A DNA stretch of 63,984 bases, filler included, from Reclinomonas americana ATCC 50394 (taxonomy: Eukaryota): assembly GCA_048213135.1 (NCBI GenBank). It is 10 parts of 7 records of this genome, joined end to end, with 100 filler letters (N's around TTAATTAATTAA, not from the genome) between each part and the next. Parts side by side here need not be neighbours in the genome. Positions count along the whole stretch, not along the records: positions 1 to 11,540 come from PS015688.1; 9 more parts are not named here. The stretch is one strand, 5' to 3'. The notes under the pieces were generated by a model. The model saw only the letters and a list, made by a program, of their open reading frames with translations, had not been told where the DNA came from and searched no databases. Positions within the stretch are counted from its first letter, which is position 1. Each line of letters starts with the position of its first letter. Position numbers and translations under genes: made by a program. Of the stretch, positions 1 to 38,870 are shown piece after piece.

Positions 1-319
1 AGTGGAGGGAGGCGGAGGGGGAATGGGAAGGGGGAGAAGGGGGGAGAAGGAGGGAGATGGAGGGAGAAGGGGGTGAAGGGGTGAAGGGGAGAAGGGGAGA
101 AGGTAAGATGGGGAGAAGGGGAGGATGAGGAGGCAAAATAGGGAAAGACGAGTGAGAGAGTCACAAGTGAGACATAGAAATCCACAGACGGAGTAAGAGG
201 GACGAGAGGAAAGTGAGCGAGGCGATGGGAGAGAGACAAGAAGGAGCGCGAAGACGGCAAATGATAGAAGGTAGAGTGAATGACGCTGAGACAGAAGGAG
301 AAGATGAACAAACTCCTCT

Positions 320-2610
320 GCACCACTCACCACCCGCCGCCTCGCTGCCACCAATGGCATTGGCCACACACGGAGGAACTGCCGTGCGCAGCACGTACGA
401 TTTCGAATGCTCGGCAGCGGAGTCGGGAAGCAGGCATTCGGCGGCGACCAGCTGCGTGTTCCACGGCGACAATTGCGGGTCGATGGATGAGGGATAGTAG
501 TCGAGATCGCCACTGTCGCAGAGGTGAGCGCAGAGAGAAACGGAGAGAGGTGGACAGGGAGGAGCGCACCGCAAGATGCGCAGATTGTACTCTTCGTCCT
601 CCTCGATGCGCTTGCGAGTGGCGGTCTCCAGGCGCTTGTATGTCAGTTCGACGTCGCGATCGAGCCAGCCGGGGCGGGTGACTTGTGACTGCGGGGGGAA
701 GAGAAGATGAGATGAGGGTTCAAGGAAGGGTGTAGTTAGGGACAGAGCCAAGGATCCTAGCATTGTGCTTATTCATGCTGCAGGCCAACGCATTACGAGT
801 TCCTTCTCTTTCCTGTTACCACACCTCCCTCATTCATATCTCTTCCCCGCAAACCATGTCATCACTTCTCTTTTCTCAGCCTGTGACTATGAATCGACAC
901 AGAGCGCACAACGAGCTGACTGTGTCCTTCTCTTTGTTACGTCTCCTCGAGATGTCTCCACTACGTCTTTCTCTATGACTTTCTCCCTCTCACTCCCTTA
1001 CCTTTCCCTCCCCTCCCCTCCCCACCCCACGCAACACTGTGATGATACTCGCTGTGATGATGATGCGGGTGCTCGTGATGCTCATGCTCATGATCGTGGT
1101 GGTAGTGCGGGTGATGCAGCTCGTGCGTCAAGAAGTCACCATACTCCTTCAACTGCACCGCTCGGTGGTACACCAGGTGCATGTGCGCCGGGTGCACGAC
1201 GTCGACACGGATACGACCGTCGGGCTGCATGCTGTACTCGCACCGTTCGTGGTCGAGTTGGCAAACGTACTGCAGGAAGGATTCTGGGGCGGAGGCAAGA
1301 GGTGAGCGATGATGGATTGGGGTGAGGGTTGGCGGTTGGACGTGCGAACCGGCAGTGCACGTATCGAGAAAGTCGTCGTAGAGGCCGGCGGCGATGCGGG
1401 CAATGTTGACGGCGGCGGCTGTGGGGAGGGGAAGAGGGAAGGGGGGAGATTGAGAGAGATATAGCGAGGGATGAACAGAGGAGGAAATCGTCAAGAAGAG
1501 AGAAGCGGAGCAGGAAGAGAAGAGAGAGGTCGGAGTATTAAATGCGAATGAAAGAGGAGGGAGTGAGAGGGAAGAGAAGAAATGTGAAGGAGGGAGACAG
1601 AGAGAGAGCGACTGACAGTGAGAGAGAGAGAACGAGCGACAGTGAGAGAACGAGCGACAGTGAGAGAACGAGCGACAGTGAGAGAACGAGCGACAGTGAG
1701 AGAACGAGCGACAGTGAGAGAACGAGCGACAGTGAGAGAGAGAGAACGAGCAACAGTGAGAGAGAGAGACAGTGAGAGAGAGAAGGAGCGACAGTGAGAG
1801 AGAGAGAACGAGCGATAGTGAGAGAAAGAGAACGAGCGATAGTGAGAGAGAGAGAACGAGCGACAGTGAGAGAGAGAGAACGAGCGACAGTGAGAGAGAG
1901 AGAGAACGAGCGTACAGTGAGAGAGAGAGAGAGAACGAGCGACTGAGAGAGAGAACGAGCGCGCGCGCCAGTGAAACAGAGAACGAGAGGAAGGGAGAAT
2001 GACAGGTTGGAGACACCGCAGCGAGAAGGGATTGCGAGACGCATCCTGCTCCCGATATGAGAGAGAGCACACGGGACAGAGAATGAAGAAGACAGACACT
2101 GAAAGAACGATCAATTAGGGTTTGAGCGGAAACAGGATGACCGGGCGTCCGAGCGAGAAGAAAAAGAAGATGAGGAACGGAATCACACCTGGCGCCGTCT
2201 CCGAGAGTCGTCGAACACAGGCGCGACGAAGGAGCTGTGACCACACCACAATCAATGAGGGTGCGACACAATCAACGACAACAGCGAAGCACTGAACTGG
2301 AAGCTCCAGGAAATCGGCAGCCACGGCCACGTCGCGAATGCGGTCGACAGAGTGCAGCCAGTCGCCTTCGCTCGACATGAACTTGCGAAGAACGGAGCGG
2401 TGTTCCTTGCGGGTGACGGGGTCGGAGGGGCCTGTGCAGGGGGGTGGAAGGGTGAGAGAGGGAGAAGGGAGAAGGGAGGGAGAAGGGAGAGAAAGGACAG
2501 GGGAAGAGAATGACATTGAGGAAATGGCATAGAACAACCCCAAAGGAAGGCGCGATAGAGAGAGAGCGAGAGAGAAAGAGTGAAGAAGAGGCAAAGGAAG
2601 AAGAAGAAGA

Positions 2611-2688
<78 letters not shown>

Positions 2689-3648
2689 GAGGANNNNNNN
2701 NNNNNNNNNNNNNNNNNNNNNNNNNNNNNNNNNNNNNNNNNNNNNNNNNNNNNNNNNNNNNNNNNNNNNNNNNNNNNNNNNNNNNNNNNNNNNNNNNNNN
2801 NNNNNNNNNNNNNNNNNNNNNNNNNNNNNNNNNNNNNNNNNNNNNNNNNNNNNNNNNNNNNNNNNNNNNNNNNNNNNNNNNNNNNNNNNNNNNNNNNNNN
2901 NNNNNNNNNNNNNNNNNNNNNNNNNNNNNNNNNNNNNNNNNNNNNNNNNNNNNNNNNNNNNNNNNNNNNNNNNNNNNNNNNNNNNNNNNNNNNNNNNNNN
3001 NNNNNNNNNNNNNNNNNNNNNNNNNNNNNNNNNNNNNNNNNNNNNNNNNNNNNNNNNNNNNNNNNNNNNNNNNNNNNNNNNNNNNNNNNNNNNNNNNNNN
3101 NNNNNNNNNNNNNNNNNNNNNNNNNNNNNNNNNNNNNNNNNNNNNNNNNNNNNNNNNNNNNNNNNNNNNNNNNNNNNNNNNNNNNNNNNNNNNNNNNNNN
3201 NNNNNNNNNNNNNNNNNNNNNNNNNNNNNNNNNNNNNNNNNNNNNNNNNNNNNNNNNNNNNNNNNNNNNNNNNNNNNNTCATGTACGCCACGAGAACCTC
3301 CAGTGCATCGCCACCGATTTGCTCGAGAATGAGAGGAAGAGTGGAAGAGGGAGCAGAGAGAGGAAGAGAAGGAACAGAGGAGTCAGTCATGGCGTTGTGA
3401 GAGAGAGAAGAAGAGAAGAAGAGCAGTGTCCTCTCTCGCATGCAGTATTGGTCAATTGCTTTCATTCCTCCCTCCTTTCTCTCTCTCTCTTCTGTCTCTT
3501 CCTCTTCTCCTTCTCCTCCTCCTCCTCCTTCACTCTGCGCCGTCATGTACGCCACGAGAACCTCCAGTGCATCGCCATCGACTTGCTCGAGAATGAGAGG
3601 AAGAGTGGAAGAGGGAGCACGGAGAGAGGAGGAGGAGGAGTCAGTCAT
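320..3648 (-). CDS. Multi-exon BTB/POZ(-BACK)-like protein with His-rich segment; partial, crosses an N gap and probably continues past the left edge
   Basis: Spliced pieces read LPLILEQVDGDALEVLVAYM (~3545-3648), ...DRIRDVAVAADFLELP|LLRRACVRRL (~2190-2432; resembles the BTB C-terminal 'AAD.L.L..L...C...L' motif), AAVNIARIAAGLYDDF (~1360-1420), a His-rich exon (~1035-1300) and exons at ~568-690 and ~325-528. Each is flanked by GT/AG and polypyrimidine tracts. Start codon and exon edges are approximate. Confidence 0.45.
1610..1975. repeat. Intronic tandem minisatellite, unit ~ACAGTG(AG)nAACGAGCG, 18-26 nt
   Basis: About 15 visible copies with a variable-length (AG)n core. Confidence 0.9.
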
Positions 3649-4203
3649 GATGGCGTTCTGTGTGTGAGAGAGAAGAGCAGTGTCCTTTCTCGCATGAATA
3701 TATGGAATTGCTTTTGCTTTCTCGCTCACCATCGTCTTCCGCACTCCCAGTTCATCATCTTTCACTTCTTCATCATTCCCTTCTTCTCCTCCTCCTCGCA
3801 CGATCCACTTCATCATGCTACCGCTCCTCACATGCAATCACCCGAGCTCAATCGTCGCCGCCGCACTTGCAGCCAGTGACATGCGCAGCCAACCGTCAAG
3901 TACTGTTTATTGAAATCTGCACTCACCAAGGTATTCTCTTTCTCTCTCTCATTCCTCCCCATATGCATCTATTGCCTCCTCGCCCACATTGTACACCAAG
4001 GCAATTGCAAGGCAATGCAGCGCATCTGGGGATTGTTGCTGCCAAACTCACAAGTATCGAGAAGTTCACTCCAAACCGCGAACACCTGCATGATAATCTC
4101 TATCGTGTCAATCAATAGCGCTCGCGTCGTCGTTTTTCATCGCCAGCAGGGCTCACATCATCGCTATCGAACTAAAACTCTTTCGTCCTCCTCATCCTCT
4201 TCG

Positions 4204-7200
4204 TCACCCCCGTCCACCCTCGTCGGTCACTTCCTCAAGGCCGACACCACCCACAGCACCTAGCGCGTTGGTGAAATCGGGCAAGACGGTACCGAGAATG
4301 CGCTCCACAAGCCCACGAGCGTTTCGACGCATCAAAAAGATCCTCTTGCCGGACACACGGGCGGTGCACGCAGAATCGAACGCCATGCAGCGAAGATAAG
4401 TCACAGAATCCGGGGCAGGAGTCACTAGATCTGCCTGCTCATCAAGAGGCACTTCTTCTCCAGTCGGTAGTGACCAAACCCGTACTTCTCCACGACCACA
4501 GCGACTCACGATGTACTGGCCATCAGGAGTGACGTCGACACACCGCACCCCATCTACGTGTCCCTCCAGTCGTAGCAATTCCTCTCCACTCGCCAGTGAC
4601 CACACTCGCACTGTTTCATCCAAACTGCCACTTACGATGTGCTGGCCATCAGGAGTGACGTCGACACACCGCACCCCATCTACGTGTCCCTGCAGTCGGC
4701 GCACCTCCTCGCCACTGGCCAGTGACCACACTCGCACTGGGTTGTCAAAGATGCCGCCACAGCTCACAATGTGGTGACCATCACGAGCGACGATGACACA
4801 TTGCACCCAATTAGTGTGTCCCAGCAGCCACCGCACTTCTTGTCCACTCGCCAATGACCAAACCCGCACTGTGTTGTCCCCACCTCCGCTGACAATGTGC
4901 TGACCATCGGGAGTCACGACGACACATGTCACCCACTCAGTGTGTCCTTCCAATCGCCGCAACTCTTCTCCACTCGCCAACGACCACACGCGCACTGTCT
5001 TGTCACGGCCTCCGCTGACAATGTACTGACCATCGGGAGTGACGGCAACACACGCAACAGCACCATCGTGTCCCTCAAATCGTCGCAATTCTTCTCCACT
5101 CGCCAAAGACCACACCCGAATAGTCCCGTTCCGACCCCCACTCACAGCGTGTTGACCGTCTGGAGAAACAGCAAATGCTGAGGGTATTCCTTCCACCTTC
5201 CGCAGTTCCTCGCCTGTTGACACAGACCACATCCTCACCGTGCCATCATCACCGGCACTCACAGCATGCTGACAATCGTGGGAGAGCGCAACTGAACGCA
5301 CCAATCCGGTGTGTCCACCCAACCGTCGTACACCTTCATCACCTATCACAGGCCACATTCGTACTGTCATATCTTCACTCCCACTCACGACGAACTGACC
5401 ATCAGGAGTAATCGTGATTGAACGCAGTTGACCAGTGTGTCCCTCCAACCGCCGCACCTCTCCACCACTAGCCAGTGACCAAACTCGCGCAGTCGAGTCC
5501 CCACTCCCGCTGACAACGTGCTGCCCATCAGGAGTGACGGCGACAGTGTACACTGCGGTAGTGTGTCCCTCGAACCGTCGCACTTCTTCTCCATTCGCCA
5601 TCGACCACACTCGTACAGTCTTATCCAAACTGCCACCCAGAATGTACTGGCCATCGGGTGTTACTGCCACTGCATACACCCTATCAGTGTGGCCTTCCAG
5701 ACGGAGCACCTCATCGCCACTTGTCAGTGACCACACCCGTACACTCCTGTCATCACTGCCGCTCACAATGTGCTGGCCATCAGGTGTCACTGCCACTGCA
5801 TTCACCTCACCCGTGTGCCCTTCCAGTCCACGCACCTCCTCACCAGTTGCCAGTGACCACACCCGTACATCGTCCCAGCTGCCACTCACGACGTGCTGGC
5901 CATCAGGTGTCACTGCCACTGCAGATACCCCACCCGTGTGCCCTTTCAGTCGGCGCACCTCCTCGCCACTTGCCACCGACCACACCCGCACAGTCTCGCC
6001 CCAACCGCCACTCACAATGTGCTGGCCATCGGGTGTCACTGCCACTGCATCCACCCAACTCGTATGGCCTTCCAGTCGGCGCACCTCCTCGCCACTCGCC
6101 ACCGACCACACCCGTACAGTCTTGTCCCAACTGCCACTCACAATGTACTGGCCATCGGGTGTCGCTGCCACTGCCCGCACCCCACTAGTGTGTCCTTCCA
6201 TCGGCTTCCTCGGCCACTTCGCACCCATCACATCCGCCCCCCTGAAATCCGCCTCCCTCGCAAACGCCATGCACACATTCACCTCTCTCATATCCGCCCC
6301 GCTCCACACCGTCCTGTGCATCACCGCATCCCTCAAATCCGCACCCCGCACTCGCACACCGGACAGATCGCGCCCACTGAACGACACTTGTGCCACACAC
6401 AACACCGTTGCTGCATTCGCCGCTGCCGTCACCAGTCGCTCCTCATCCACCTTTCGTGACAAATCAATCACCTCCCACAGTCTCGCTTGCAATCGAGGAG
6501 ACCGTCGCACCACCTCGGCCATCTGCTCCACCAGCGATGGTCTATCGTTCAGCAGTCGCACCGCCAACACATGCTGCTGCACATCTTGCATCGTCAACCT
6601 CCTCTCCTCATCCCACGTCTCCCACGCAAACACATGCCGCGCCACACAGTGCTCCAGAAACGACAGATGCACGAAACCCCACTGTGTCGTCCCATACCGT
6701 CGCACAATCGGACAGCACACTCGCACATGCTGGTTCTTGTGACCGAGGAACTTGTCAAACGGTCCCTCTTCCACTCGTCGCAAGGCGAGTGGCGCACCAC
6801 CAAACTCAGCAATATCTTCTTCAAATGCCCGCTCCTCCGACGTCACACGCACCACATTCCTCTCATGCATCAAGCGTGCCAGTCCCTCACAGAATGCCAG
6901 ACACGTCTCCTCACTCGGCACATGCTCCGCATGAAGACGCGTCTGTCTCTCCTGCTCCCTCACGATCCACTGTCGAATGAATCGGTCAAACACATCGCGT
7001 CGAGTCGGTCGCTGCACACCACTCGCTACTAACTTCGGCAGCACACGAGCCACCACGGCCAGCAGGAACGGATTCGACACCAGTGCATCCAGTCCATGCA
7101 CACTCTTCAGTGCATGAATGTACTCCTCGGCAGTCGACCATCGCACGTCACCGTCATCATCATCACCGCCCAATCGTACCAGTCTCACGAAATACTCCTC

Positions 7201-8995
7201 TATCTGCTCCTTGTTGAACGGTGCAATGTGTCGCTCCATCTGATGTTGCATGCACAATTGTCCTCGTGCATCCACCGGTGCAAAGTACCGTCGATACAGC
7301 GTCGCGCCACCCAATGCCGTCAGTGCATAATCGCCACGGCAGGTGATAATCACCTTCACATCACGACACACATCCAGCTGGTTCTTGACAAACAGATTCA
7401 CACCACGGTACAGCTCGTCGTATCCGTCAAGCAACAACAGCAGTGGATCCTCTTTCAATCGTCGCACATCCGACTCACTGAATCCCAACTCGGGCGACAG
7501 TCGCTCCAGTGCCTCCTCCAACAATCGCTCATCGGCGTTGCGCAAAGCACCAAGAGGCACACGAACAGGCACACGTCGACTCTCCCTCATCTGCCACTGC
7601 CGCCATGCTCGCCCTGCCAGCAGCGACATGGTGGTGGTCTTACCGGCGCCACTGTTGCCGAAGAGCACCAGCACACGCTGCGTGGTGTTGGTGTCGGAGA
7701 GGAATGCATCCACCTCGGTCAACAGATCCGTCATGCTGTCTCTCGACACGACGTCACGATCACGGGAGCACAGCAGTGGTACATACATTTGCATGTCCTT
7801 GCGCACACTCTCATCTTCGTGATAGTAGGCCATCTCACGCACAGCCAGTCGATGAAGTCGCTCCTCGAATGTGCTGACACTAAAGTCGAGATGGCGCGCT
7901 TCACGGATACGAGCAGTGAATCGAGTACACTCATCATCCGTCAACTGCAGTCGACAGAGGATGGAGAGGAAGACACCGCCATCACCAAGGTACTCCTGCA
8001 CACTGTCGTGTGTCAATAGCAACTCATCGTGTTTCAGCTTGTTTCTGACACAATGCAGCTCCTCGACTGCCTTCCGTTCATCAGCATTGTCAATCAATAG
8101 CAGCTTGCGACCGTCATCTTCAACAAAGCCACCATACAGCATGACGGAGGTGAGAGCCGTCGTGTCGAAACCGTCACACTGAGGGTCGGATGATGGATTG
8201 GCGTCGAATGCTGCACGCCAGGCCAACAACAAAGGCTGCTTCTCCTCAAAAAGCCTGACTCGTGAGGGGTGGAGCGGCGCGTGGCGCTCACGCCACGCTT
8301 TCACAGCCGCCGCATCCATGCCTGCTGGGGAGAAGCTCGGCACCCACGCCCGTACATCAAAATCGGGATTGTCGCGACTGAACTTCGCCAATACGCGTTG
8401 ACAGCGCAGACGCACGGCCTCCTCCACCACCTCAAAGGCCATGTTGATGCGCTGCAAGTTGATCATGCTGTGCGAGCACGTGAGCAACACCGACACAGAG
8501 AGCGACCTCCGCCTGACAACAACAAACCGCTCTGACGACACTGCCGACGAACTGGTCATGACGGAATACGAAGTACGCGAATGAGCTCGCACACAAACGG
8601 TTCACGCACAGATAGCCGACGCACCTTGCAATTCCGCGCACGGCAGTAGCAGCGGCTGCGGCAGCATGGGACACGGTCACCCGCACGACCAGCTGCGTGC
8701 TGGCCTTGATGCCCAAGCTACGCAGCTTCATCACAGGCGCGTCCTCCAAGTCGTACTCCATCGGCTTTTCCACTCCCACAATCTCCACCTGCTCATCTCC
8801 ACTCTTCTCACGCAGCAAACGCGTGGCCTCGCGCAGCAAGTCCGCGAGAGTGGACATGGCCGACATGCCCTCGACCACCACCGACAGCGACGAATCATGC
8901 GCCGCACTCACATTCACAGAGAACTGCGTGTGTGCATTGGTCAGTGCCACGAACACACGCACACGCAAAGGCACACGCCGCCAAACCGTTGACAT
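4204..8995 (-). CDS. NLR-like STAND protein: N-terminal ubiquitin-like (?) domain, HEPN domain, NACHT NTPase, pentapeptide repeat, 14 WD40 repeats
   Basis: Model: exon 1 8995-8625 (ATG at 8995, donor GTGCGT), 24-nt exon 8551-8528, 60-nt in-frame intron 8527-8468, long exon 8467-4204 (TGA). Motifs: FDTTALTSVML...ELHCVRNKLKH (RxxxxH at 8046-8029); Walker A GNSGAGKT (7659-7636); Walker B LLLLLDGYDEL; NPFLL; GFVHLSFLE; AAANAATVL...FSGRDLSGVRVRGADLRDA pentapeptides (~6383-6213); 14 GH...W repeats (6201-~4450). Confidence 0.9.
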
Positions 8996-9079
8996 GGTGT
9001 GCTCTCCAACAGCAAGTCAGGATGATTGTGTCCTCTTGCCTGTCCTGAGAGACAGACAGAGGAAGAGCAAGAGAGAGGA

Positions 9080-9218
9080 ATGTCTCTGCGGTACCGCATG
9101 CGTCTGAGGACGACTGGTGCCGCCGGCAACAATGCGCTGCTCTCGTTCCCAGAGACAGCCACAGTGCGTGACTTTCTCGAGCAGATCAAGAGCACCAGTG
9201 GTGTGCCAGCGTTTCAAG

Positions 9219-9273
<55 letters not shown>

Positions 9274-9506
9274 AGGAGGAGGAGAAAGCACAGAGAGACA
9301 AGAGAGTGTGAGGCATGAGAAAGAGAAAGATCAAGGAGAGGAAGAAGCAGAAGAAGAAGGGACGAGAGAGTGTTATCAGAGAGTGCAAGACATGAGAGAC
9401 TGCGTGAGAATGAGTGTGTGGGAGAGAGGGAGAGGGAGTGAGAAGCGAGGCAGAGAAGCAGAGTCAAAGAGAAGCACAGAATCGTCAGTGCAATCATGTG
9501 AGAGCT

Positions 9507-9552
<46 letters not shown>

Positions 9553-12500
9553 CATCAAGAGCTGAGAGTGATCAACAGTGAGCTCACATTCGCACATCAC
9601 TGACAACATCATCTTTCTGCTGTTGTCTGTTTCCTCACTCATTCTCTCTCTCAGTGCTTGCCGGTCAACCACCGAAACCTGTCACCTTCCGCTCACTGAG
9701 TGAGCCTCTGGCGGTGGCGTTTCCGTCGGGCGAGGCGTTTTGGGTCGACACGGCCGTGGCGCGATCGCCGTATGCCGATTTGCCAGAGTCGGAGACCGCC
9801 ACTGCTGCATCGTCGCAGTCGTCCTCCTCGTCGTCTGCATCGTCGCACGTGGTGAGAGTCTCATTTGTTACTCACTCTCTCTCTCTCACACACACACACA
9901 CTCACTCCATGGCCACCCTTGCTTTGGCTTGCCTCCGTACTCCATTGTGCCCCTTCTCCTGCCACAGTCTGCTCTCTTTGTTGTCTCGCTCACTCATGGT
10001 TGCTACTCTCTTACAGCCCTCACTCTCTTGTGACCTCTGATCACATCTCGTAGTCCGTTGTTTTCACTCTCTCGCGATCCCCACTCGCGTTCCTCTCACC
10101 GACTCACGGTTGCTGCTCTCCACCCTTGCTTGGCTTGCCTCCGTGCTCCATTGTGCCCCTTCTGCTCCCACAATCTCTGCTCTCTTTGTTGTCTCGCTCA
10201 CTCGCAGTCCTCACTTGCCTCCTCTCCTTGTCCGTTGTTTTCACTCTCTTCATGTTATCGCGATCCCCACTCGCGTTGGTCTCGCAGACGACATTGATTT
10301 CACCCTTGCTGTCGCTCTTCTATGTTCTCACGATCGCCCAGCCTCTCCTGATTGTCTTCTTGCCCTTGCTCTCGCTCTTCCACTCTCACTGACAGCTTTC
10401 TCTCTCCCATGCCGCCTCCTTCTCATGGACTGCTGCTGTATCGTGACCCTTCCCCCCCCCCCCTCCCCCTGCTCTCTCTCTCTCTCTCTTGTGCCTTGCT
10501 TGCTATCCCATGGTTTGTAATTCCGCATTTCACAATCCTCTCTCCCTTTCGTCTCAGCTCGCCCACTCACTCGTGCTGCTGTCTCACGTCATCCATTGTT
10601 CGTGCCCCATCTCACTCGATCACCTCCCCCCGCATCTCTCGATTTTCCATCTCGCACAATCTTGACTCTCCCGCTTTCCTCCCCTTCCTCACTTTATCAT
10701 CCCCCTCACTCCACCAACCAGGCCGGTGAACAAGCAGCCGCCCGCCCGCCACCCCCTGCCGCCTCTCAGTCCGACGAGCTGTACGCCAGCTCCGACTTGA
10801 CGGGCTCGTTTGACATTATGATTCGCAAGATGGAGGACGATAACAGCTGTTTGTTCTCGGCGGTAGGGTTCGTGAAAATAGTGGAAGGGGGAATGAGAGG
10901 ACAGGAAGGAGCATACTGCTTTGAAATCTCACTCAATCCTCCGTGGTTGTGCTCTGTTGCCTTCCGCCTGTCGCCACTCCTCTCTTCTGTATCCCTTCTG
11001 TATATTTACATGATGCGTGCACCACTCCCTTGTCTCGCTGAGGTCGCAGAGCGCCCTGCGTGAGTGGCGGCAGCGTTATGTGTGCGGAGACCAGCCGACA
11101 GTTCGCCAACGCGTATTCGTCGCTCATATTTGACACTGCGTGTGGGGTTGTGTGGGCTGTCACGCCTTCGTGTCAGTCTGTTTGTATGTCTGGAGAATCA
11201 TTTCCTGTCATTCTGTGCTTGTGTGAAGCTTTCTTTTACATCTCGTTGCATCTCCTCACTAATTCTCCTATTATGTCAACTCTGTGAGTGCGTCTGTCTC
11301 TGCACGTCACAATATTCTCGTTCGCTTCGTCGTTTCTGAGTCTGTGCTTCAGGCTCACGTAATTATCTTGACACTTGTTGCTTTCACGAGTCTCTTTCTC
11401 TCTCTATGCTTTTGGTTCGCCAGATCGCTCAGCTCACGCGCACACCGTCTTCTCCGTTCACACTTCTTCTCATTCTCCCTTCCCCATTCCCCTTCTCCCC
11501 CATCTCCCCTCCTCCCTCTCTCCTCTCTCTCCTCCTCCTCNNNNNNNNNNNNNNNNNNNNNNNNNNNNNNNNNNNNNNNNNNNNTTAATTAATTAANNNN
11601 NNNNNNNNNNNNNNNNNNNNNNNNNNNNNNNNNNNNNNNNCCTCCATCTCCCCCTCCTCTCCCCTCTCCCCCCTTCCCTTTCCCCTTCTCCTCCATTCTC
11701 CCCCTTTTTCTCCCCCCTTCTCCCCTTCCCTCTCATTCCCCTTCTCCCCCTCTCCAGCTACGCCATGGAAGGCCAGCGCTCGCTCGCCCCCAAACTCCGC
11801 AACCTCTGCGCCGACATGGTCACCGCCGACCCCGACCGCTGGAACGAACTCGTCCTCGGCCGACCACCCACGCAGTACCGCCGATGGCTGCAGTCGCCCG
11901 ACTCGTGGGGTGGCGCCATTGAGGTGTCGATTTTGGCCGACTACTACCAGACGCAGATCACCGTGTGGAACATTCAGACGGGGCAGACGCTGCGATTTGG
12001 TGCGATGCATGCTTATTATTATAACGGTTTGGAATTCGCTCACATGCTGTCGGTGGCAGGGGAGGGCGAGGCGTATCCGCGACAGATTGCGCTGCTGTAT
12101 GATGGAATCCAGTTGCGTGGGACGGGCTCGCAGGGAGCCGTGGGATTCTCGAGACTGATTGCTCGTGGCATGCAGCTACGACACGTTTGCCGTGGCCCTC
12201 GACCCCGGCAGCGAGGTGTTCGACAAGACAGTGTTCGACAGCAACGACGAGATGCTTACGTTGAAGTGCATGTCGATTGTGGAGTCGATGAAGCAGGTGC
12301 GTGTGCAGTTCAACCATTCTCGTGCATGTCTGCATGTCCGTCTGTTCAGCCGTCTTGCTGCTTTCCCTCGTGCCACCTCTCCGAGTCCTATTTCCCCTTT
12401 CGCCCTCGTACTTCTCCTTCTCTCTTCTCCTGTCTCCTTCCATTCTCCAACTTACTTTCTCTTCTCCTCTCCCCACCCTCTCTCCTTCCATCCCTACCTC

Positions 12501-22048: not shown

Positions 22049-22381
22049 CTCTCGCCTCCCACGTGAAGTAGGTGCACTCATTGCACACACTCACTCACTG
22101 AGTGAGAGAGAGAGACTGTTGCAGTGCGGTGTGAGTGCGTGTATGCNNNNNNNNNNNNNNNNNNNNNNNNNNNNNNNNNNNNNNNNNNNNTTAATTAATT
22201 AANNNNNNNNNNNNNNNNNNNNNNNNNNNNNNNNNNNNNNNNNNNNTACGTCTCTCTCTCTCTCCTCTCCTCCTCTCTCTCTCACTCTCACTCTCACTCT
22301 CTCTCTCTCTCTCACTCTCACTCTCTCTCTCTCTCTCTCTTGCACCTTCCTTTTTCTTATCGTCGCTTGTCATTCACGCAG

Positions 22382-22857
22382 GAGGAGGGCGGTGAGGAGG
22401 AAGAGGAGTACTCGGACGACGAGGAGGGCGAAGGTCTGTGTGTGCTCTCGAAATAGTGGAAAACGATTGACTACGATGCTCACGCCGTTCCGCAGAGGAA
22501 ATGGAGGCCAGCGACTCCGAGTCGGATGAGGACTCCGGCAAGGTCGACTCCAAGGCTCTCGGCAAGGCCATTCGTGAGACCATTTTGCAACGCAAGCGTC
22601 AACGCGGTGCGTAATCACACAGAACTCTCGAGTGCCAGTGCATTGCGTGTGTGTGCTCATTTGCGCTCGTGTGCACAGAGGGTGACGACAGCGAGGATGA
22701 GCCTGCGACCAAGACGCAGAAGACGCAGTTGTGTAACCTCTACATGTGCTCAACCTACAAACGTGTCACTCATTTTTGCGAGCAGGAAGGTGGCGGAGCG
22801 TCAGGAAAAGGTGAAGGAGGCGGTGCAAAAGAAGCAGCAGGAGCAGCAGAAGAAGCC

Positions 22858-22891
<34 letters not shown>

Positions 22892-23454
22892 GAGAAGAAG
22901 CAGCAACAGCCGGAGAAGAAGCAGGAGAAGAAGCAAGCGGAAGCAAAGCAGCCGGAGAAGAAGGCCGCAGCTCCCGCCAAGCGGACACTGAAGGCCGGTG
23001 TGGTGGCCGAGGATCTGGCAGTCGGCCAGGGCCCCGTGGCCAGCAAGGGCAAGATGATCGAGGTCAAGTACCGCGGTTTCCTGAAGAACGGTCAAATGTT
23101 TGACTCGAGTGGACGCTTCCCGTTCAAGCTTGGTGAGTGGGAGGTGGAGGGGAGAGAGAGAGGAGAGGGTGAATTCTCACTCTCTCTTTTGTCGTGCAGG
23201 TGCCGGCGCTGTCATCCAGGGCTGGGACATTGGTGTCGAGGGCATGATGGTCGGCGGCAAGCGCAAGTTGACGATTCCGGCGGCGGCTGCGTTGCGTTCT
23301 TGTTTTGGAAAAATCTGCTTTGTTGCAATCAGGGGTGGTGGCCGCTCACACACCTTCTTTTGTTGCACACAGCTACGGTCGCTCTGGTGCGCCACCGGCA
23401 ATCCCGCCGAATGCCGAGCTCACCTTTGAGGTGGAGTTGTTGAAGGTGCGCTGA
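22382..23454 (+). CDS. FKBP-type peptidyl-prolyl isomerase with acidic and Lys/Gln-rich N-terminal region (nuclear FKBP39/Fpr3-like); 5' end lost at a linker
   Basis: VAEDLAVGQGPVASKGKMIEVKYRGFLKNGQMFDSS...FKLG|AGAVIQGWDIGVEGMMVGGKRKLTIPAAA|AYG...IPPNAELTFEVELLKVR* (TGA 23452-23454). Acidic EEEEEYSDDEEG exons lie upstream. Confidence 0.9.
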
Positions 23455-24563: not shown

Positions 24564-27500
24564 ATGCGCACGCTCTTGTTGCTGCTGCTTGTGCTGCTCG
24601 CACTGTCCCTCTCCACGGGCATCAGCGCACAGTCCACTCACCACATTGCCTCTGTGCATTACAATGCCTCCACAAAGACGTGACTAGCACACACAAATTT
24701 CCCCCGACCTCGTGCTCTCACACTCACTCTCTCTCTCTCTCTCTCTCTCACATAACAGGTACTCTCTGGTGTGGGACTCGACGGACAGCGACGCTGCGGC
24801 CACTGGAAGTTCTCTCTCTTTTCTTGTGTGGTGATGTTGTGCACAAAGAATCAAGTGTCACTGACTCACACACATCAACAAACAGTCTATTATGATCGTA
24901 TTGGAACGACTGGATGGACCGAGTTGCATGTGGCCACTAACTTTGCGTTTCCGGACGCCGTGCAAGGTCTCTTTTTTGTATATTGATTGCTTGCTGCCTG
25001 TATTGTGTGTAATCATTCTCCGCGGCATGACTGCGCAGCGTACGCGGCGGGATACGTGGAGGGAGCGCTGACTGCGGAGTTTCGTCACTAGAGCCTCTCT
25101 CTTTGTCTATCTCTCATTCAATCTCTGGCGGCAGGCTGGTTCCCCTTGTCTGCTTGTCAGTCTTCTTTGCATTCTTCCTCTCGCTCTCTGCCTCCCTCAC
25201 TCGGTCACAACCATGGTCCGATTCCGCCATTTGCACTTCTCTTTCTTCCTCCTCTCAGTCTTCTTCCCACTCTCAGACTTCTCTGACCACTCGTCTCTAC
25301 TGTCTCCACACTCCTCTCTTCTTCCCCGTCGTTACAATCGTGACCGTCGTTTGCAGCTCGTTCTTCACCTCCTCGTGCCGCTCCCGTTCTCAATTTGCTC
25401 CCCTCGCCTGTCTCTATTCATTCACTCCCAACTCCTTCCCTTTACGATCAATCCCTCCGCTCGCGCCTGCTCTCCATTCCCACTCGCTGTCGTCGTCAAC
25501 TGCACTTCTCTGCCTTCCTCCCTCGCTCATGCCCTCCTCATCCCCTCGTTCTCCATCAGCCTGATTTACAACCACCACTTGAACCTCGTGGCCTCGGTGT
25601 ATCCGTTCAAGAACGGAGTCGTGCCGCCGGCCGCCGCCAAGTTCTTGGCGGATCAGGAGCAGTGGGCGGTGTCGCAGGCGGCCAAGTTTGGGGCGAGCAG
25701 CGATTATTGGTATCATGCGGGATTGGTGATGCAGCAGGCGTTTGGTCTGCGTGATGGATATGATGCGGTGCAGACGCCAGATAAGGTGGGTGGGGAATGG
25801 GGGAAAGGAGGGAAAGAGGGTAAGGAGGGGAAGGAGGGGAGAAGAGGGAAGAGGGATGTAGAGAGATGTGAGGTGGTNNNNNNNNNNNNNNNNNNNNNNN
25901 NNNNNNNNNNNNNNNNNNNNNNNNNNNNNNNNNNNNNNNNNNNNNNNNNNNNNNNNNNNNNNNNNNNNNNNNNNNNNNNNNNNNNNNNNNNNNNNNNNNN
26001 NNNNNNNNNNNNNNNNNNNNNNNNNNNNNNNNNNNNNNNNNNNNNNNNNNNNNNNNNNNNNNNNNNNNNNNNNNNNNNNNNNNNNNNNNNNNNNNNNNNN
26101 NNNNNNNNNNNNNNNNNNNNNNNNNNNNNNNNNNNNNNNNNNNNNNNNNNNNNNNNNNNNNNNNNNNNNNNNNNNNNNNNNNNNNNNNNNNNNNNNNNNN
26201 NNNNNNNNNNNNNNNNNNNNNNNNNNNNNNNNNNNNNNNNNNNNNNNNNNNNNNNNNNNNNNNNNNNNNNNNNNNNNNNNNNNNNNNNNNNNNNNNNNNN
26301 NNNNNNNNNNNNNNNNNNNNNNNNNNNNNNNNNNNNNNNNNNNNNNNNNNNNNNNNNNNNNNNNNNNNNNNNNNNNNNNNNNNNNNNNNNNNNNNNNNNN
26401 NNNNNNNNNNNNNNNNNNNNNNNNNNNNNNNNNNNNNNNNNNNNNNNNNNNNNNNNNNNNNNNNNNNNNNNNNNNNNNNNNNNNNNNNNNNNNNNNNNNN
26501 NNNNNNNNNNNNNNNNNNNNNNNNNNNNNNNNNNNNNNNNNNNNNNNNNNNNNNNNNNNNNNNNNNNNNNNNNNNNNNNNNNNNNNNNNNTTGCTTCTCT
26601 CTCGCTGTGCTCGCTTCTCTCTCGCTGTGCTCGCTTCTCTCTCGCTGTGCTCGTTCCTTCTCTCGTTGTGCTCGCTTCTCTCGCTGTGCTCGTTCCTTCT
26701 CTCGCTGTGCTCGTTCCTTCTCTCGCTGTGCTCGTTCCTTCTCTCGCTGTGCTTGATTCTCTCTCGCTGTGCTCGTTTCTTCTCTCGCTGTGCTCGTTCC
26801 TTCTCTCGCTGTGCTCGTTCCTTCTCTCGCTGTGCTCTGTCCTACCTCCCTTCTCTCTCCCTCACCCTCTCTTACCCTGTCTCCCTCTTTTCCTTCTCGC
26901 AGCGACTCACCATGGACCAGTACCGCTCGATCACGGGTCTGGCTGACTTGTTCGACATTCTGCCGGCGGTGGACCCCACCATGCGTCCCAAGTTGCGGCT
27001 CACCATTCCCACGCGCCATGATCTTTGCTTTGTTGACTCACCGCCGCACGCAGCTTCCACAAGATGGACGAGGACACTCTGCTGTCGTACATCAACCGCA
27101 ACTCGCACTGCTCGTCCTTGGTGCGCGTCACACCGGCACTCGATGAGCTGTTTGCCGGCCACGCCACCTGGTTTGATTATGCCACTATGTTGCGTCCCCA
27201 CCGCTGCCTGCTGTTCGCGGGAGAAGTCTCACATTCTTGCAGGAGCCGCGTGTACAAGCACTTTAACTTTGAGTTCCAGCACACGTCGTTTGCCAATCGT
27301 CGCACTTCATTTTCGTCATTCCCTGGTACGCATTCGTGTTGTTGGTGACATTATTTTTCCCTGCTTGCTGACTTGCGCGTTCTCGCCAGCCACCATCTCC
27401 TCCACCGACGACTATTACGTCAATCACGACACGAAGCTGGTGGTGATGGAGACGACGTTGAGTATGACGTCTTCCTTGTTGCGCACTAACAGAGTACCCA

Positions 27501-30500
27501 CTGACCGTGCGTCCGCGCAGCAACGACGTGTTCAACACGACCCTGTACCAGTACGTGGTGCCGCAGACGCTGCTCTCGTGGCAGCGTGCCGTGATCGCCA
27601 ATCGATTGTCGCACGGTGGCGCCGAGTGGACGCAGACGTTTGCGGAGAATAACAGCGGGACGTACAACTGCCAGTGTTGCGTGGGTTGGGGGGAAGGGGC
27701 GGGGAGAGATCTTTGAGGCAAGATGCAAAGAGAGAGGGTTAGTGGACGAGTGAAGTTGAGCAAAAGAGAGAGAGAAAGAGAGAAAGAAAGGAAGAAAGAA
27801 TGAAAGCCAGCAAGCAGAAAGAAGAAATGGAGCAAGAGAGAAAGGGCAAGAGAAAGAAAGAAAGAAAGAAAGTAAGAGAAAGAGAATGAGAAAGAGGAGA
27901 GAATGAGAGAACGAGAGAAAGAAAGAAGGAATACAGAAGGAAAGAGAAAGAAAGAGGTCGAACGGCAAGGGAGAAAGAAGGAATCAGAGATAAAAGAAAG
28001 AAACAGAGAGGGAGAGAAAGAACGAACGAAAGAAAGAAAGAAGGAAGGAAAGAAGTAAGGAAAGCAAGGGAGAAAGGATGAAAGAAAGAAAGAAAGAGAG
28101 GGAGAAAGGAAGAAAGAAAGGATGAGAGAAAGAGAGAAAGAAAGAAAGAAAGAAAGAAAGGGAGAAAGAAAGAAGAGAGAAAGGGAAGAGAAACAGAGAA
28201 AGAGGGACAAAGATGAGGGAGTTTCCTGATGATTTGAATTCTTATATTCTCTCTCTTTCTTACTCTCTCGTTGCCTCTCTCGCAGGGATCGTGGTCGACT
28301 ACTCCAAGTTCACCCCCGGCTCCGACCTGCAGCCCAACACTCTGTGGATTCTCGAGCAGATTCCCGGCTACGTGGAGTCGGCCGACAAGACGGATCAGCT
28401 GTACTTTGGTTACTGGTGCGATTGTCTCCCCTTCCATCGCTCTCTTTTCCCCCTTGCTGCTGCTGATCAACTTCTCTTGCCTGCGCAGGCCGTCGTACAA
28501 TGTTGCGTGCCGTCGATGACCTGATTGACAAGAGTGTATTGTCTCACAGCCGAATGTACAGGTGCCTTACTTCCCGCGCGTTTTCAACGAGAGCGGATAC
28601 CCCGAGTTTGTCAAGAAGGTGTGTGTGATTGGAGTATTCGCAGGCAACGATACCTTGCATTCAAACGTGGCTCTTGCGTACAGTACGGCGATCAATTTAC
28701 GTACGGCAACTGGTGAGTCGAATGGTGGCATCCACAGACGTGTTCAATGGCTCATGTCGTGGCGATTCCACAGCCCTCGTGCCAAGATCTTCCGCCAGCA
28801 GGCTGCCAGCGTGCAGGACACTGAATCGATGAAGGCGTTCATGCGGTTCGTTGACTGGCTGGCGCCTGGTTGACGCGAGCTGCTCATCGTTCTTGTTCTT
28901 GTTGCAGCTGGAACGAGTACGAGACCGACCCGATTTGCCAACACAACCCAGGTTTATTGTCGACGATTGTGTATTTCACACGTGCGTGTCAACTCATACG
29001 ATGTCACAGCTGCGGCTGTCGCCTCGCGCATTGATCTGCGCGCCAATGTCACCGACCGGTTCGCTGCTGGAGCCATTGACGCCAAGGTGAGACAGGCGGA
29101 GAAAAGCCACAAGAATGGATATTCGTTGTGTGCACAGTCTGTTGCTTTTGCATGATATGCGTCGCCTGTTGTTCTGCACATTGCGCTCCGCTTCTTGCTA
29201 TGCACGGTGTGCTCCGCCTGTTGCTCTTGCACGTTGTGCGTCACTTGTTGCTCTGCTCTGTCTTCGTCGCCCGTTGCTCTGCACTTTGTGCTCCGCCTGT
29301 TGCTCTGCACGTTGTGCGTCGCCTGCTGCTCTGCACGTTGTGCGTCGCCTGCTGCTCTGCACGTTGTGCGTCGCCTGCTGCTCTGCACGTTGTGCGTCGC
29401 CTGCTGCTCTGCACGTTGTGCGTCGGCTGTTGCTCTGCACGTTGTGCGTCGCCTGTTGCTCTGTCCGTTGTGCGTCGCCTGTTGCTCTGCACGGCGTGCT
29501 CCGCCTGTTGCTCTGCGCGGCGTACTCCGCCTGTTGCTCTGCGCGGCGTGCTCCGCCTGTTGCTCTGCACGGCGTGCTCCGCCTGTTGCTCTGCACGGCG
29601 TGCTCCGCCTGTTGCTCTGCACTTTGTGCTCCGCTTGTTGCTCTGCACTTCGCTTGTTGCTCTGGCACGGTGTACACCGCTTGTTGCTCTGGCACGGTGT
29701 ACACCGCTTGTTGCTCTGCACGGTGTACTCCGCCTGTTGCTCTGGCACGGTGTACGTCACTTGTTGCTCTGCTCTGTCTTCGTCACCTGTTGCTCTGCAC
29801 GGTGTGCTCCACTTGTTGCTCTGCACGTTGTGCGTCGCCTGCACGTTGTGTGTCGCCGGTTGCTCTGCACGGCGTGCATCACCTGCTGCTCTGCACGGCA
29901 TGTTCCGCTTGTTGCTCTGCACGGCGTGCTCCGCTTGTTGCTCTGCACGGCGTGCTTCGCTTGTTGCTCTGTCTTCGTCGCCCGTTGCTCTGCACTTTGT
30001 GCTCCGCTTGTTGCTCTGCACAACGTGCTCCGCTTGTTGCTCTGCACGTTGTGTGTCGCCCGCTGCTCTGCACTTTGTGCTCCGCTTGTTGCTCTGCACG
30101 TTGTGTGTCGCCTGTTGCTTNNNNNNNNNNNNNNNNNNNNNNNNNNNNNNNNNNNNNNNNNNNNTTAATTAATTAANNNNNNNNNNNNNNNNNNNNNNNN
30201 NNNNNNNNNNNNNNNNNNNNCGCGGCGTGCTCCGCTTGTTGCTCTGCACGGCGTGCTCCGCTTGTTGCTCTGGCACGGTGTGCTCCGCTTGTTGCTCTGC
30301 ACTTTGCTTGTTGCTCTGCACGGCGTGCTCCGCTTGTTGCTCTGCACGATGTGCATCGCCTGTTGCTCTGCACATTGTGCATCGCCGTAGCTCCACCTGT
30401 CCCTTTGCTTTTTCTCTCTTGTATCTGCTTGCGCTCACCCAGCGTGCTCTCGCGCAGTTCACAAGCATGGCCGCGATCAAGTTTGGCGCCAGTCACGCCG

Positions 30501-30824: not shown

Positions 30825-31709
30825 TCACTTGGGCGTGGCATGCGCTCGCGCCGGGCTGCGCGAGTCGAAGAACGCCAGCGCCCACACGACCACGAGGGCC
30901 AGCACAGCGGCGTAGCGGCCCATTTCGCCACCGCATGGCACGTAGCCGAGCAAAATCGCACTGGCCACCGTCGCCAGTGCCAGCGGCCAGGTGACGAAGA
31001 ATCCAAACATGCCGTGCGCCTTGAACAGCTCGGCGCTGCTCGATGAATGAGTGCCGTGCTGCACCGACAACAACGAAGAAAAAGAGAAACACTCACCGCG
31101 GCGTCGGCAGCGTCGCGTTGAAGCGCCACGCGGGGTACTGCACGGCCATGCCAAAGTAGAACTCGCTGGCCGCCAACAGGAGGACGGCCACACCGAACCA
31201 GCTGTGCCAGGTGGTGAAGTGGTTGCGGCCGTTGATGGACTTGTTGAAGAAGATGGCACCAAAGCCGAGAATGCCGCACACCAGACCGACGGTTTGCAGC
31301 AGCTGGTGCAGGCGCATGCGCGGCATGTCGAGCTGCGGAACGAGTCGAGCGGGCGAGTAGCTGCGCGAGAAGGCCAAGATGGCCTCGCTCATGCAAATGA
31401 GGAACTGACAAGAGACAAGGGAGAGACAGGTGAGGGATTGACGAATGATACAACAGGCACAGCGGCGACGACACACCGAAATGCTGCGCGGCGGAGTGAG
31501 TAAGAGAAGCGAGAGTGAGTGAGGGTACGCATGGACGTGTCGCTTACCTCATGAGCAGCGGGTGGAACGGGTAGAGGGCGACGGGGACGCCAGACTGCAG
31601 CACAATCACCACCGAGACGAGCACGAGGAGGAGGTGCGGGAGGATGGTGAGGGGGCCGGTGGGCGCGGCATTGGAGGAGGAGGAGGAGGAGGGGGTGGCC
31701 TCGGGGTTC
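30825..31709 (-). CDS. Cytochrome b561 domain protein (CYB561D-like transmembrane reductase); first exon not located
   Basis: FHPLLM-SIS-FLICMSEAIL; RMRLHQLLQ; NKSINGRNHFTTWHSWFG; LFKAHGMFG (four heme-ligand His). Exons ~31709-31548, 31483-31477, ~31405-31097, ~31040-30825 (TGA). Confidence 0.88.
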
Positions 31710-38374: not shown

Positions 38375-38870
38375 GTGCGTCATTCTCGTTCCAGCAAGCC
38401 ACAATATCTCGCTCATATCACTCTTTTTATCCTTCCTCTCCCTCTTCCTTCTTAACCTATCTTCTTCCGTTTTCACTTTCCATGCTCTATTGTCCGTTTT
38501 CCCTTTCTCTCACTGTCTCTCTCTGCCTCCGTCTTCCTCTCCCCCTCTGTAATCCTCCACCTGTCCTCTCTCTTTCATGTTCCCTCTCTTTCTCTTCTTA
38601 TCCTCTTGCTCCCTCTGCTCCTTCCTTCCTATTTTCTGTCTCTCTCCCACTCCCTGCCACTCTCCCCCTTCCCCTTCCNNNNNNNNNNNNNNNNNNNNNN
38701 NNNNNNNNNNNNNNNNNNNNNNTTAATTAATTAANNNNNNNNNNNNNNNNNNNNNNNNNNNNNNNNNNNNNNNNNNNNAACAACGACGTAGCGACACGAC
38801 ACTACTAACTAACTACACTACACTACTACTCTCTCTCTCGTCTCTACTCTACCTCACACTCACACTACTA

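Follow-up and report, generated by a model that had tools for sequence, protein, structure and literature searches.

A NACHT-pentapeptide-WD40 receptor gene of Reclinomonas americana with an orphan helical head that is a candidate HEPN domain

In the genome assembly of Reclinomonas americana ATCC 50394 (GCA_048213135.1), we analysed a window of 63,984 nucleotides (nt), by which we mean the whole stretch of DNA including its filler, and within it a minus-strand locus that a first-pass annotation had read as a candidate immune receptor with a HEPN ribonuclease (RNase) domain in front of NACHT, pentapeptide and WD40 parts. The locus is one real, intact gene for a NOD-like receptor (NLR)-type STAND protein of the NACHT-pentapeptide-WD40 family. 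Its lineage-specific helical head of approximately 215 residues takes the place of a TIR or ARM-like N-terminus and is best explained as a HEPN domain of the Abi2/Swt1 type that has diverged very far, an overall reading that we hold with moderate confidence.

The receptor gene and its conserved core

From 8601 to 4204, the minus strand carries an intact stop-to-stop open reading frame (ORF) of 1465 codons. Residues are numbered here from the ATG at 8466, which gives a protein of 1420 amino acids (aa); the same frame has further ATGs at 8559 and 8442. A tblastn search found no paralogue of the gene within the window.

The core of NACHT, pentapeptide repeats and fourteen WD40 repeats proposed in the first-pass annotation was confirmed by Pfam and by collinear relatives. 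The NACHT domain (PF05729) scored 41.6 bits against a curated cut-off of 26.7 (E 1.5e-10), and both Walker motifs are intact: Walker A reads GNSGAGKT at residues 270-277 and Walker B LLLLDGYDE at residues 343-351, where the consensus of 89 relatives has GDSGAGKS and DGYDE, respectively. Pentapeptide repeats were matched at residues 694-726 (E 4.9e-5). The junction in front of them, given in the first-pass annotation as AANA..+L...F.G.DL.G+, was likewise borne out, since the query (AAANAATVLCVAQVSFSGRDLSGVRVRGADL) fits the consensus of the 89 relatives (AAANAITILVRAGVQFNGADLRGIQIPGADL), in which most columns are 80-90% conserved. WD40 was matched in 14 stretches (E 2.1e-142), which we divided into 14 units of 39-44 aa each. 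The 77-aa tail and the helical region between the NACHT domain and the pentapeptide repeats matched no further family.

The WD40 units share a mean pairwise aa identity of 61% (range 36-81%), and their DNA forms arrays of period 126 with 76-82% matches. Differences between units gather at unit positions 4-5, 7-8 and 23-26, the repeats being otherwise unusually alike. We take this pattern, which spans 4438-6195, to be that of the internally conserved, fast-diversifying repeats of fungal NLRs.

A search with residues 240-790 scored 7997 candidates, of which 366 proteins matched at E ≤ 0.001. Most of the 120 matches listed came from Mortierella, Entomortierella and Linnemannia and from the endobacteria Mycoavidus and Glomeribacter; identity to these Mortierellaceae and endobacterial relatives was 25-31% over 98-99% of the 551-residue query, and some of the 120 listed rows were WD40-only matches covering 6-12% of it. 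In 81 of the 122 proteins that we fetched, at least 350 of the 505 NACHT-pentapeptide residues could be aligned. A search of genome contigs with the NACHT query found no relative. Of the kinship stated in the first-pass annotation, the Mortierellaceae and endobacterial part stood, whereas no ciliate was present among the 120 matches listed. The family to which the core belongs has been described as 'NACHT-PPR-WD40' NOD-like receptors common to Mortierellomycota and Mycoavidus (Evol Lett 2024, PMC11291939).

In a FastTree phylogeny of 90 rows, the query has a long branch (1.64 changes per column) and does not fall within the starred (98) clade in which all 43 Mortierellaceae rows, all 12 named endobacterial rows and 27 unnamed rows are united. 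Together with four unnamed proteins, it forms part of a basal grade whose order is not resolved and just outside of which the EukProt protein P0039 branches. The highest identity of the query to any row is 33%. Constraining the query with the fungal and endobacterial core was not rejected by an approximately unbiased (AU) test on a 44-row IQ-TREE analysis (p-AU 0.228), whereas constraining it with Mortierellaceae alone was rejected (p-AU 0.00097); the groups for these tests were defined after a first tree, and long branches are involved. Because the best identity is 33%, the branch is long and the Mortierellaceae-only placement is rejected, the gene is neither a recent import from any sampled lineage nor Mortierella contamination, and the recent acquisition or retroposition suggested in the first-pass annotation was not borne out. 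An ancient transfer of the NACHT-pentapeptide-WD40 chassis is possible.

We also examined the N-termini of four relatives. P0096 carries TIR_2 (E 7.9e-11), as does P0039 (E 0.0028), whereas P0033 carries ARM_5 (E 5.8e-69) and P0010 has a weak TPR match only. Because TIR, ARM-like and TPR-like N-termini thus differ among relatives, the N-terminal slot is the exchangeable effector position of the family. The TIR N-termini are found on the deep-branching relatives P0039 and P0096, the latter an unnamed protein. Since P0039 belongs to a eukaryotic proteome, the chassis is present, with a different effector, in at least one other non-fungal eukaryote.

The orphan N-terminal domain and its HEPN candidacy

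The N-terminal domain of the query is common to none of the fetched core relatives. In a word-index search, none of the 2885 word-sharing candidates scored, and a scan of metagenome contigs found no relative. HMMER over 1.84 billion protein representatives returned two matches, both of them tandem-repeat artefacts with 1-8 bits per stretch. PADLOC and NCBIfam yielded 0 families, and phmmer against the PDB gave nothing meaningful. Because no homologue was found, we regard the domain as an orphan at the level of sequence. A single-sequence AlphaFold2 model predicts residues 1 to approximately 215 to be all-helical, with a helix at 130-146, a loop, and a further helix at 153-172; its mean predicted local distance difference test (pLDDT) score is 42.9, which makes the model unusable as a fold.

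Among 24,736 Pfam models, the sole match to the domain was HEPN_Swt1 (PF18731, gathering score 27.5 bits), obtained below threshold in three of four slices with scores of 13.1, 13.3 and 14.0 bits (E 0.12, 0.10 and 0.061, respectively). The match covers profile positions 74-102 of 115, which correspond to the catalytic helix. We then scored the domain with a profile of our own, for which 34 HEPN_Swt1 segments were taken from cyanobacteria (3 of 5 and 31 of 251 genomes had a match). This profile gave 15-18 bits on DERKAVEELHCVRNKLKHDELLLTHD, with shuffled sequences reaching at most 10.2 bits. The whole profile scored 15.1 bits against the domain (maximum 7.7 in 2000 shuffles) and its C-terminal half 18.0 bits (maximum 10.2 in 3000 shuffles), and the alignment places DERKAVEELHCVRNKLKHDELLLTHDS on aeralvselieiRnkwaHnskfstddt. 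Real sequences served as a second control: the best of the 122 fetched proteins (192,967 aa) reached 9.7 bits, and of the 612 ORFs in the six frames of the window, that of the gene itself ranked first with 10.9 bits, the next reaching 4.3 bits. In local mode, hhalign gave E 4.9e-4 at a probability of 31.8%.

The segment recognised by these profiles contains RNKLKH at residues 141-146, the sole RN...H in the 1420 aa. The polar N follows directly on R, and the motif ends a helix predicted by the low-confidence model. According to Anantharaman et al. (PMC3710099), the Rx4-6H of HEPN domains has a polar residue next to its R and closes helix 3, ahead of the loop that leads to helix 4. The predicted helix-end position of RNKLKH matches this place, and we read it as a putative HEPN motif with R141, N142 and H146 as candidate catalytic residues. 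RN...H arose in 2.2% of 200,000 shuffles of the 225-aa domain.

The ESM Atlas pointed to the same superfamily. Of the 30 clusters nearest to the domain, 12 belong to the set carrying HEPN_DZIP3, one further cluster carries HEPN_DZIP3 together with DUF4559, and the cluster at rank 18 carries HEPN_Swt1; eight have no family.

Several results weigh against a HEPN assignment. The Pfam score is half of the cut-off, and the 225-aa slice gave no match. Our own profile was picked after the Pfam match had been seen and is therefore not independent of it. The signal is confined to approximately 27 residues around RNKLKH, and the N-terminal half-profile scored 0.1 bits, its shuffles reaching 9.6, with FDTTAL left unaligned. 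In global mode, the hhalign probability fell to 0.4%. A HEPN_Swt1-like domain occurs in none of the 122 fetched proteins, and the searches of the 1.84 billion representatives and of the metagenome contigs, as reported above, gave no homologue in which the motif could be followed. The structural model is too poor to be compared with the up-down bundle of four helices, with its insert between helices 2 and 3, that characterises HEPN, and Foldseek returned no match for it at E ≤ 0.001. The Atlas rates its own result as weak (recognition 2067, below 2300), three of the ten best named matches sharing the family or clan of the best one. A bare R-x4-H is present in 57.7% of 200,000 shuffles, and the domain holds six Rx4-6H matches.

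Two motifs were accordingly discarded as evidence. The bare RxxxxH was rejected because of its frequency in shuffles, and the FD..L motif was rejected as statistical support because the N-terminal half-profile does not rise above its shuffles; FDTTAL starts at residue 100, and D101, the candidate for the conserved acidic residue in helix 2 of HEPN domains, can be matched to the D..sLL motif of the family when the hhalign alignment is extended. The first-pass annotation had rested its HEPN domain on FD+T.L and RxxxxH together. What survives of that proposal is the local, sub-threshold HEPN_Swt1 match at RNKLKH and the Atlas neighbours, whereas the FD+T.L motif went unscored and no fold could be predicted.

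The same results could be explained by a head that is not HEPN at all. On the same NLR, a novel helical domain confined to this lineage might, for example, serve as an adaptor, target a membrane, form pores or be another enzyme, its resemblance to the motif having arisen by chance or convergence. This would account for a match that is sub-threshold and restricted to one helix, for the unsupported N-terminal half, for the failing global alignment, and for the lack of a homologue or a fold, as well as for the eight of 30 nearest Atlas clusters that have no family; many of the helical N-termini in surveys of fungal NLRs are likewise unannotated (PMC9815663). However, the lone weak match falls on a family known as an NLR and STAND effector and on none of the approximately 24,700 others, the motif helix outscores all 3000 shuffles and every real-sequence control, and the N after R and the position at a helix end both fit HEPN. 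We therefore consider a head unrelated to HEPN unlikely, if a serious contender.

A further explanation keeps the HEPN ancestry and removes the catalysis: the head might be a dead or regulatory HEPN that binds RNA or dimerises, like the HEPN of Swt1, with the output provided by a partner. The HEPN of eukaryotic Swt1 is probably inactive and Rx4-6H is only partly conserved in the Swt1-like family, according to Anantharaman et al. (PMC3710099), and the upstream acidic position has no confident alignment in our domain. On the other hand, the domain has R, the N next to it and H at canonical spacing, and inactive HEPN domains usually lose the motif, again following PMC3710099. A dead HEPN head appears quite improbable to us. 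Taken on its own, HEPN ancestry of the N-terminal domain is probable by a modest measure on the sequence evidence, and activity as an RNase somewhat less so.

The upstream exon and the genomic surroundings

Upstream of the main exon, a piece that begins at ATG 8995 (MSTVWRRV...QLVVRVTVSH...) is coding-like in one frame only, the other five frames being negative. It scores +0.42 bits per codon when codon usage is trained on the whole gene, +0.35 when it is trained on the NACHT part alone and +0.19 when it is trained on the WD40 part alone. Under these last two trainings, the N-terminal domain reaches only +0.04 and -0.04. The coding signal of this candidate exon 1 stops at a strong donor, AAG/GTGCGT, whose first intron base is 8624, and there is no coding signal in any frame across 8624-8468. 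A single 157-nt intron over this interval, ending CACAG/C, keeps the frame (...VRGIA-S-MINLQ...). The alternative has two introns: one of 73 nt (8552-8624), a 24-nt exon (8551-8528), and one of 60 nt (8468-8527) with a weak donor, GCG/GTTTGT. Because one 157-nt intron would join exon 1 in frame and is simpler, the mini-exon is dispensable. The first-pass annotation was thus right about a coding-like ORF piece with its ATG at 8995, whereas its mini-exon is not needed and its junction is one base off, the acceptor AG lying at 8553-8552.

Three points count against the splice. No fewer than 148 GT..AG pairs would preserve the frame, for which reason frame compatibility was rejected as splice evidence; the inferred introns of the neighbouring gene measure approximately 430 and 900 nt as compared with 157 nt here; and only 84 nt separate ATG 8995 from the neighbour's ATG at 9080. 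On balance, exon 1 probably belongs to the mRNA of the NLR gene, judging from codon usage and splice signals.

The first-pass annotation had seen a ubiquitin-like fold in exon 1, a claim that was not borne out by profile or structure comparisons: Pfam gave no ubiquitin-like family at E ≤ 10, PADLOC and NCBIfam gave nothing, and neither phmmer against the PDB nor Foldseek returned such a protein; a scan of metagenome contigs found no relative of exon 1. A model of exon 1, likewise unusable as a fold (pLDDT 41.6), predicts strands at 8-19, 22-31 and 35-43, a helix at 50-65, a strand at 71-76, a helix at 91-94 and a strand at 101-108. The order of these elements is one lead to a ubiquitin-like beta-grasp, for which the sequence beta-beta-alpha-beta-beta-(3-10 helix)-beta would be expected. 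The other lead comes from the Atlas, where clusters of Rad60-SLD, ubiquitin and TINCR are among the neighbours of exon 1 at 0.88-0.89, values below 0.9 being a lead only. The ubiquitin-like fold is accordingly a lead only, suggested by models.

The window consists of at least ten contigs (1.2-13 kb) chained by nine identical linkers, N44-TTAATTAATTAA-N44, and the contig of the NLR gene is 1-11540. Because linkers lie between the contigs, genes beyond 11540 are no physical neighbours of the NLR gene. The sole recognisable true neighbour is an OTU1/YOD1-like deubiquitinase gene (9080-11540, plus strand) that stands head to head with the NLR locus and has a UBX-like first exon, microsatellite-rich inferred introns and a DDNSCLF catalytic exon at approximately 10790-10900. 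The earlier statement that every neighbouring gene is intron-dense could thus be held only against this one true neighbour with its inferred introns, the other genes of the window being on separate contigs. Likewise, the host that had been called a protist is a eukaryote with spliceosomal-type introns as far as the window goes, and nothing narrower follows from it.

These surroundings bear on whether the locus is a working host gene at all, as it might instead be an unexpressed relic, or DNA that stems from an associated organism and was misassembled into host sequence. Fragmentation of the assembly is severe, the window includes a contig with bacterial-type genes, and proteins of the organism are absent from protein collections, all of which would fit such an origin. 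However, the 4.26-kb frame is open with all NTPase motifs intact, and within the contig no assembly gap separates the NLR gene from the OTU1-like gene, which bears introns. With a GC content of 0.54-0.61, the gene resembles its contig as a whole (0.558), and grouping it with only the Mortierellaceae was rejected, as described above. We consider a relic or foreign DNA very improbable.

The left flank of the NLR gene is microsatellite-rich and has an assembly gap at 2694-3278. Beside this gap and its (CT)n and (CA)n tracts, at 3300-3700 on the minus strand, there are two near-identical exon-like pieces (...SSTLPLILEQ[VI][DG]GDALEVLVAYM...) approximately 250 nt apart; they could reflect either a duplication at this place or an error of the assembly. 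The contig 58641-62466 carries uninterrupted bacterial-type genes, listed in the table, and probably entered the assembly from a contaminating or an associated bacterium; 57389-58540, with a GC content of 0.67, is grouped with it. Eukaryotic exon fragments were seen on other contigs at 22457-23440, 27037-28870, 31096-31548, 41214-42028, 50127-50459 and 53995-55209, and their families are FKBP, phospholipase B (split by introns into three pieces), cytochrome b561, NHL repeats, branched-chain ketoacid dehydrogenase kinase (BCDHK) and GxGYxYP. The GxGYxYP ORF of 405 aa has one metagenome protein as its sole database relative. No Rfam matches and no tRNAs were found in the window.

Table 1. Positions of the features of the NLR locus and of other features in the window (residues counted from ATG 8466)
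Feature	Position	Strand	Basis
Stop codon of the long ORF	4204..4206	-	ORF reading
C-terminal tail, ~77 aa	4207..4437	-	No family match
Main uninterrupted coding exon, 1420 codons from ATG 8466	4207..8466	-	ORF and domain matches
14 WD40 units, residues 758-1343	4438..6195	-	Pfam; mean pairwise identity 61%; DNA period 126
AAANA junction and pentapeptide-repeat segment, residues ~681-750	6217..6426	-	Pfam and alignment with relatives
NACHT NTPase domain, residues 264-428	7183..7677	-	Pfam PF05729
Walker B	7414-7440	-	Motif LLLLDGYDE
Walker A	7636-7659	-	Motif GNSGAGKT
Helical N-terminal domain, residues 1-215, sequence orphan, candidate HEPN-like effector	7822..8466	-	No homologue; low-confidence helix model; HEPN_Swt1 the sole Pfam match
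DERKAVEELHCVRNKLKH, residues 129-146, predicted helix ending RNKLKH	8029..8082	-	Sole segment matching HEPN_Swt1 profiles
FDTTALTSVML, residues 100-110	8137..8169	-	Extended alignment to the family's D..sLL motif, without statistical support
Candidate 157-nt intron, AAG/GTGCGT ... CACAG/C	8468..8624	-	Splice signals; no frame with a coding signal
Candidate upstream coding exon, ATG 8995, 123 codons + 2 nt	8625..8995	-	Gene-like codon usage
First exon of the neighbour, OTU1-like deubiquitinase, UBX-like domain	9080..9222	+	PF21403, E 9.9e-8
Linkers between contigs	11541-11640, 22147-22246, 30121-30220, 38679-38778, 42324-42423, 55619-55718, 57289-57388, 58541-58640, 62467-62566		
Short-chain dehydrogenase	59321-60169	-	E 2.5e-40
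TetR regulator	60184-60798	+	
Family-3 solute-binding protein	61065-61910	-	

Proposed mechanism and comparison with known systems

By analogy, the two seven-bladed WD40 propellers would bind a trigger, upon which the NACHT module would exchange nucleotide and oligomerise. Oligomerisation would bring the N-terminal domains together, and their paired RNxxxH helices could form metal-independent RNase sites. The RNase might then cut cellular or invader RNA, leading to growth arrest, death or virus restriction. The ubiquitin-like-looking exon of approximately 123 aa would probably stand in front of the head, joined through one short intron. To our knowledge, the switching on of a HEPN nuclease by NACHT oligomerisation has been demonstrated for no NACHT protein and is deduced from domain architectures. 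In RNase L and Ire1, the KEN domain is a HEPN-type RNase that is switched on when ligand binding pairs two copies; PMC3710099 describes these enzymes as well. The likeness to our protein is an analogy only: the sensor and switch domains are unrelated, and KEN is circularly permuted.

The most far-reaching form of the proposal is an NLR of a non-animal eukaryote in which the NACHT-pentapeptide-WD40 chassis of bacterial and fungal type is combined with a spliced ubiquitin-like cap and with a HEPN RNase head that is active and extremely divergent, the head representing a HEPN lineage without detectable relative among 1.84 billion clusters. We put this combination forward only tentatively. If the head is an active HEPN RNase, the known range of RNase-armed NLRs would widen past animals and bacteria, and the gene would offer a compact single-exon receptor of 4.3 kb for testing a NACHT-switched HEPN nuclease. 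It would then also point to an independent invention of the HEPN-NLR design known to date from marine animals and bacteria, and to an effector swapping (TIR, ARM-like, HEPN) that reaches protists. If the head is not HEPN, the protein would be one more orphan-headed NLR of ordinary interest. The gene itself documents the reach of the chassis among eukaryotes beyond Mortierellomycota and their endobacteria, and the exchange of the N-terminal slot.

The closest known systems by core are the NACHT-PPR-WD40 receptors of Mortierellomycota, Mycoavidus and Glomeribacter (PMC11291939), with which the query shares the NACHT domain, the AAANA junction, the pentapeptide repeats and the WD40 array, 98-99% of the 551-residue query being alignable. 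It differs from them in its host, which is another eukaryote, by an identity of 25-33% and by lying outside their starred clade of 43 fungal and 12 endobacterial rows, and their N-termini are ARM-like or TPR-like helices of 500-700 aa, in contrast to the 215-aa RNxxxH domain found here. The main text of a survey of fungal NLR effectors contains 0 occurrences of HEPN (PMC9815663).

The bacterial NLR-related NACHT proteins, as presented by Kibby et al. (bioRxiv 10.1101/2022.07.19.500537), resemble our protein in carrying effector, NACHT and repeat sensor on a single polypeptide, and both Pentapeptide and HEPN stand among the domains that these authors list for NACHT proteins. TIR heads, known from bacterial TIR-NACHT-pentapeptide-WD40 forms, also occur here on the relatives P0096 and P0039. 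Unlike the bacterial NACHT proteins, the query gene lies on a eukaryotic contig beside an intron-bearing gene. Another bacterial arrangement is that of the HEPN (Swt1/Abi2 clade)-STAND-TPR proteins, of which Npun_F6454 is an example (Table 1 of PMC3710099). These combine a HEPN domain of the matched family with a STAND NTPase and a repeat sensor. They differ in the STAND domain and in the repeats, and their HEPN domains score 34-147 bits on the Pfam model as compared with 13-14 here.

A literature search of titles and the beginnings of abstracts found no published HEPN-NACHT-pentapeptide-WD40 protein in a protist. Among eukaryotes, bivalves, cnidarians and cephalochordates have close counterparts by design in their DZIP3/hRUL138-like and CXorf38-like HEPN-NACHT proteins, which, in the descriptions given in PMC3710099 and PMC9646362, carry an Rx4H HEPN with N after R on the N-terminal side of NACHT. 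Some of these have C-terminal WD40 or TPR repeats and are read as RNA-cutting NLRs, and more than 50 oyster NACHT proteins carry an N-terminal HEPN (PMC3710099, PMC9646362). HEPN is named as an effector in animal conflict proteins in PMC8195603 as well. Our protein gives no Pfam match to HEPN_DZIP3, and its NACHT is of the bacterial and fungal pentapeptide-WD40 type; the nearest Atlas clusters of its head carry HEPN_DZIP3, a likeness that stops short of proven HEPN homology. Because the HEPN-NACHT design is already known in animals and bacteria, the new parts in the query would be this chassis, its host and an orphan HEPN lineage.

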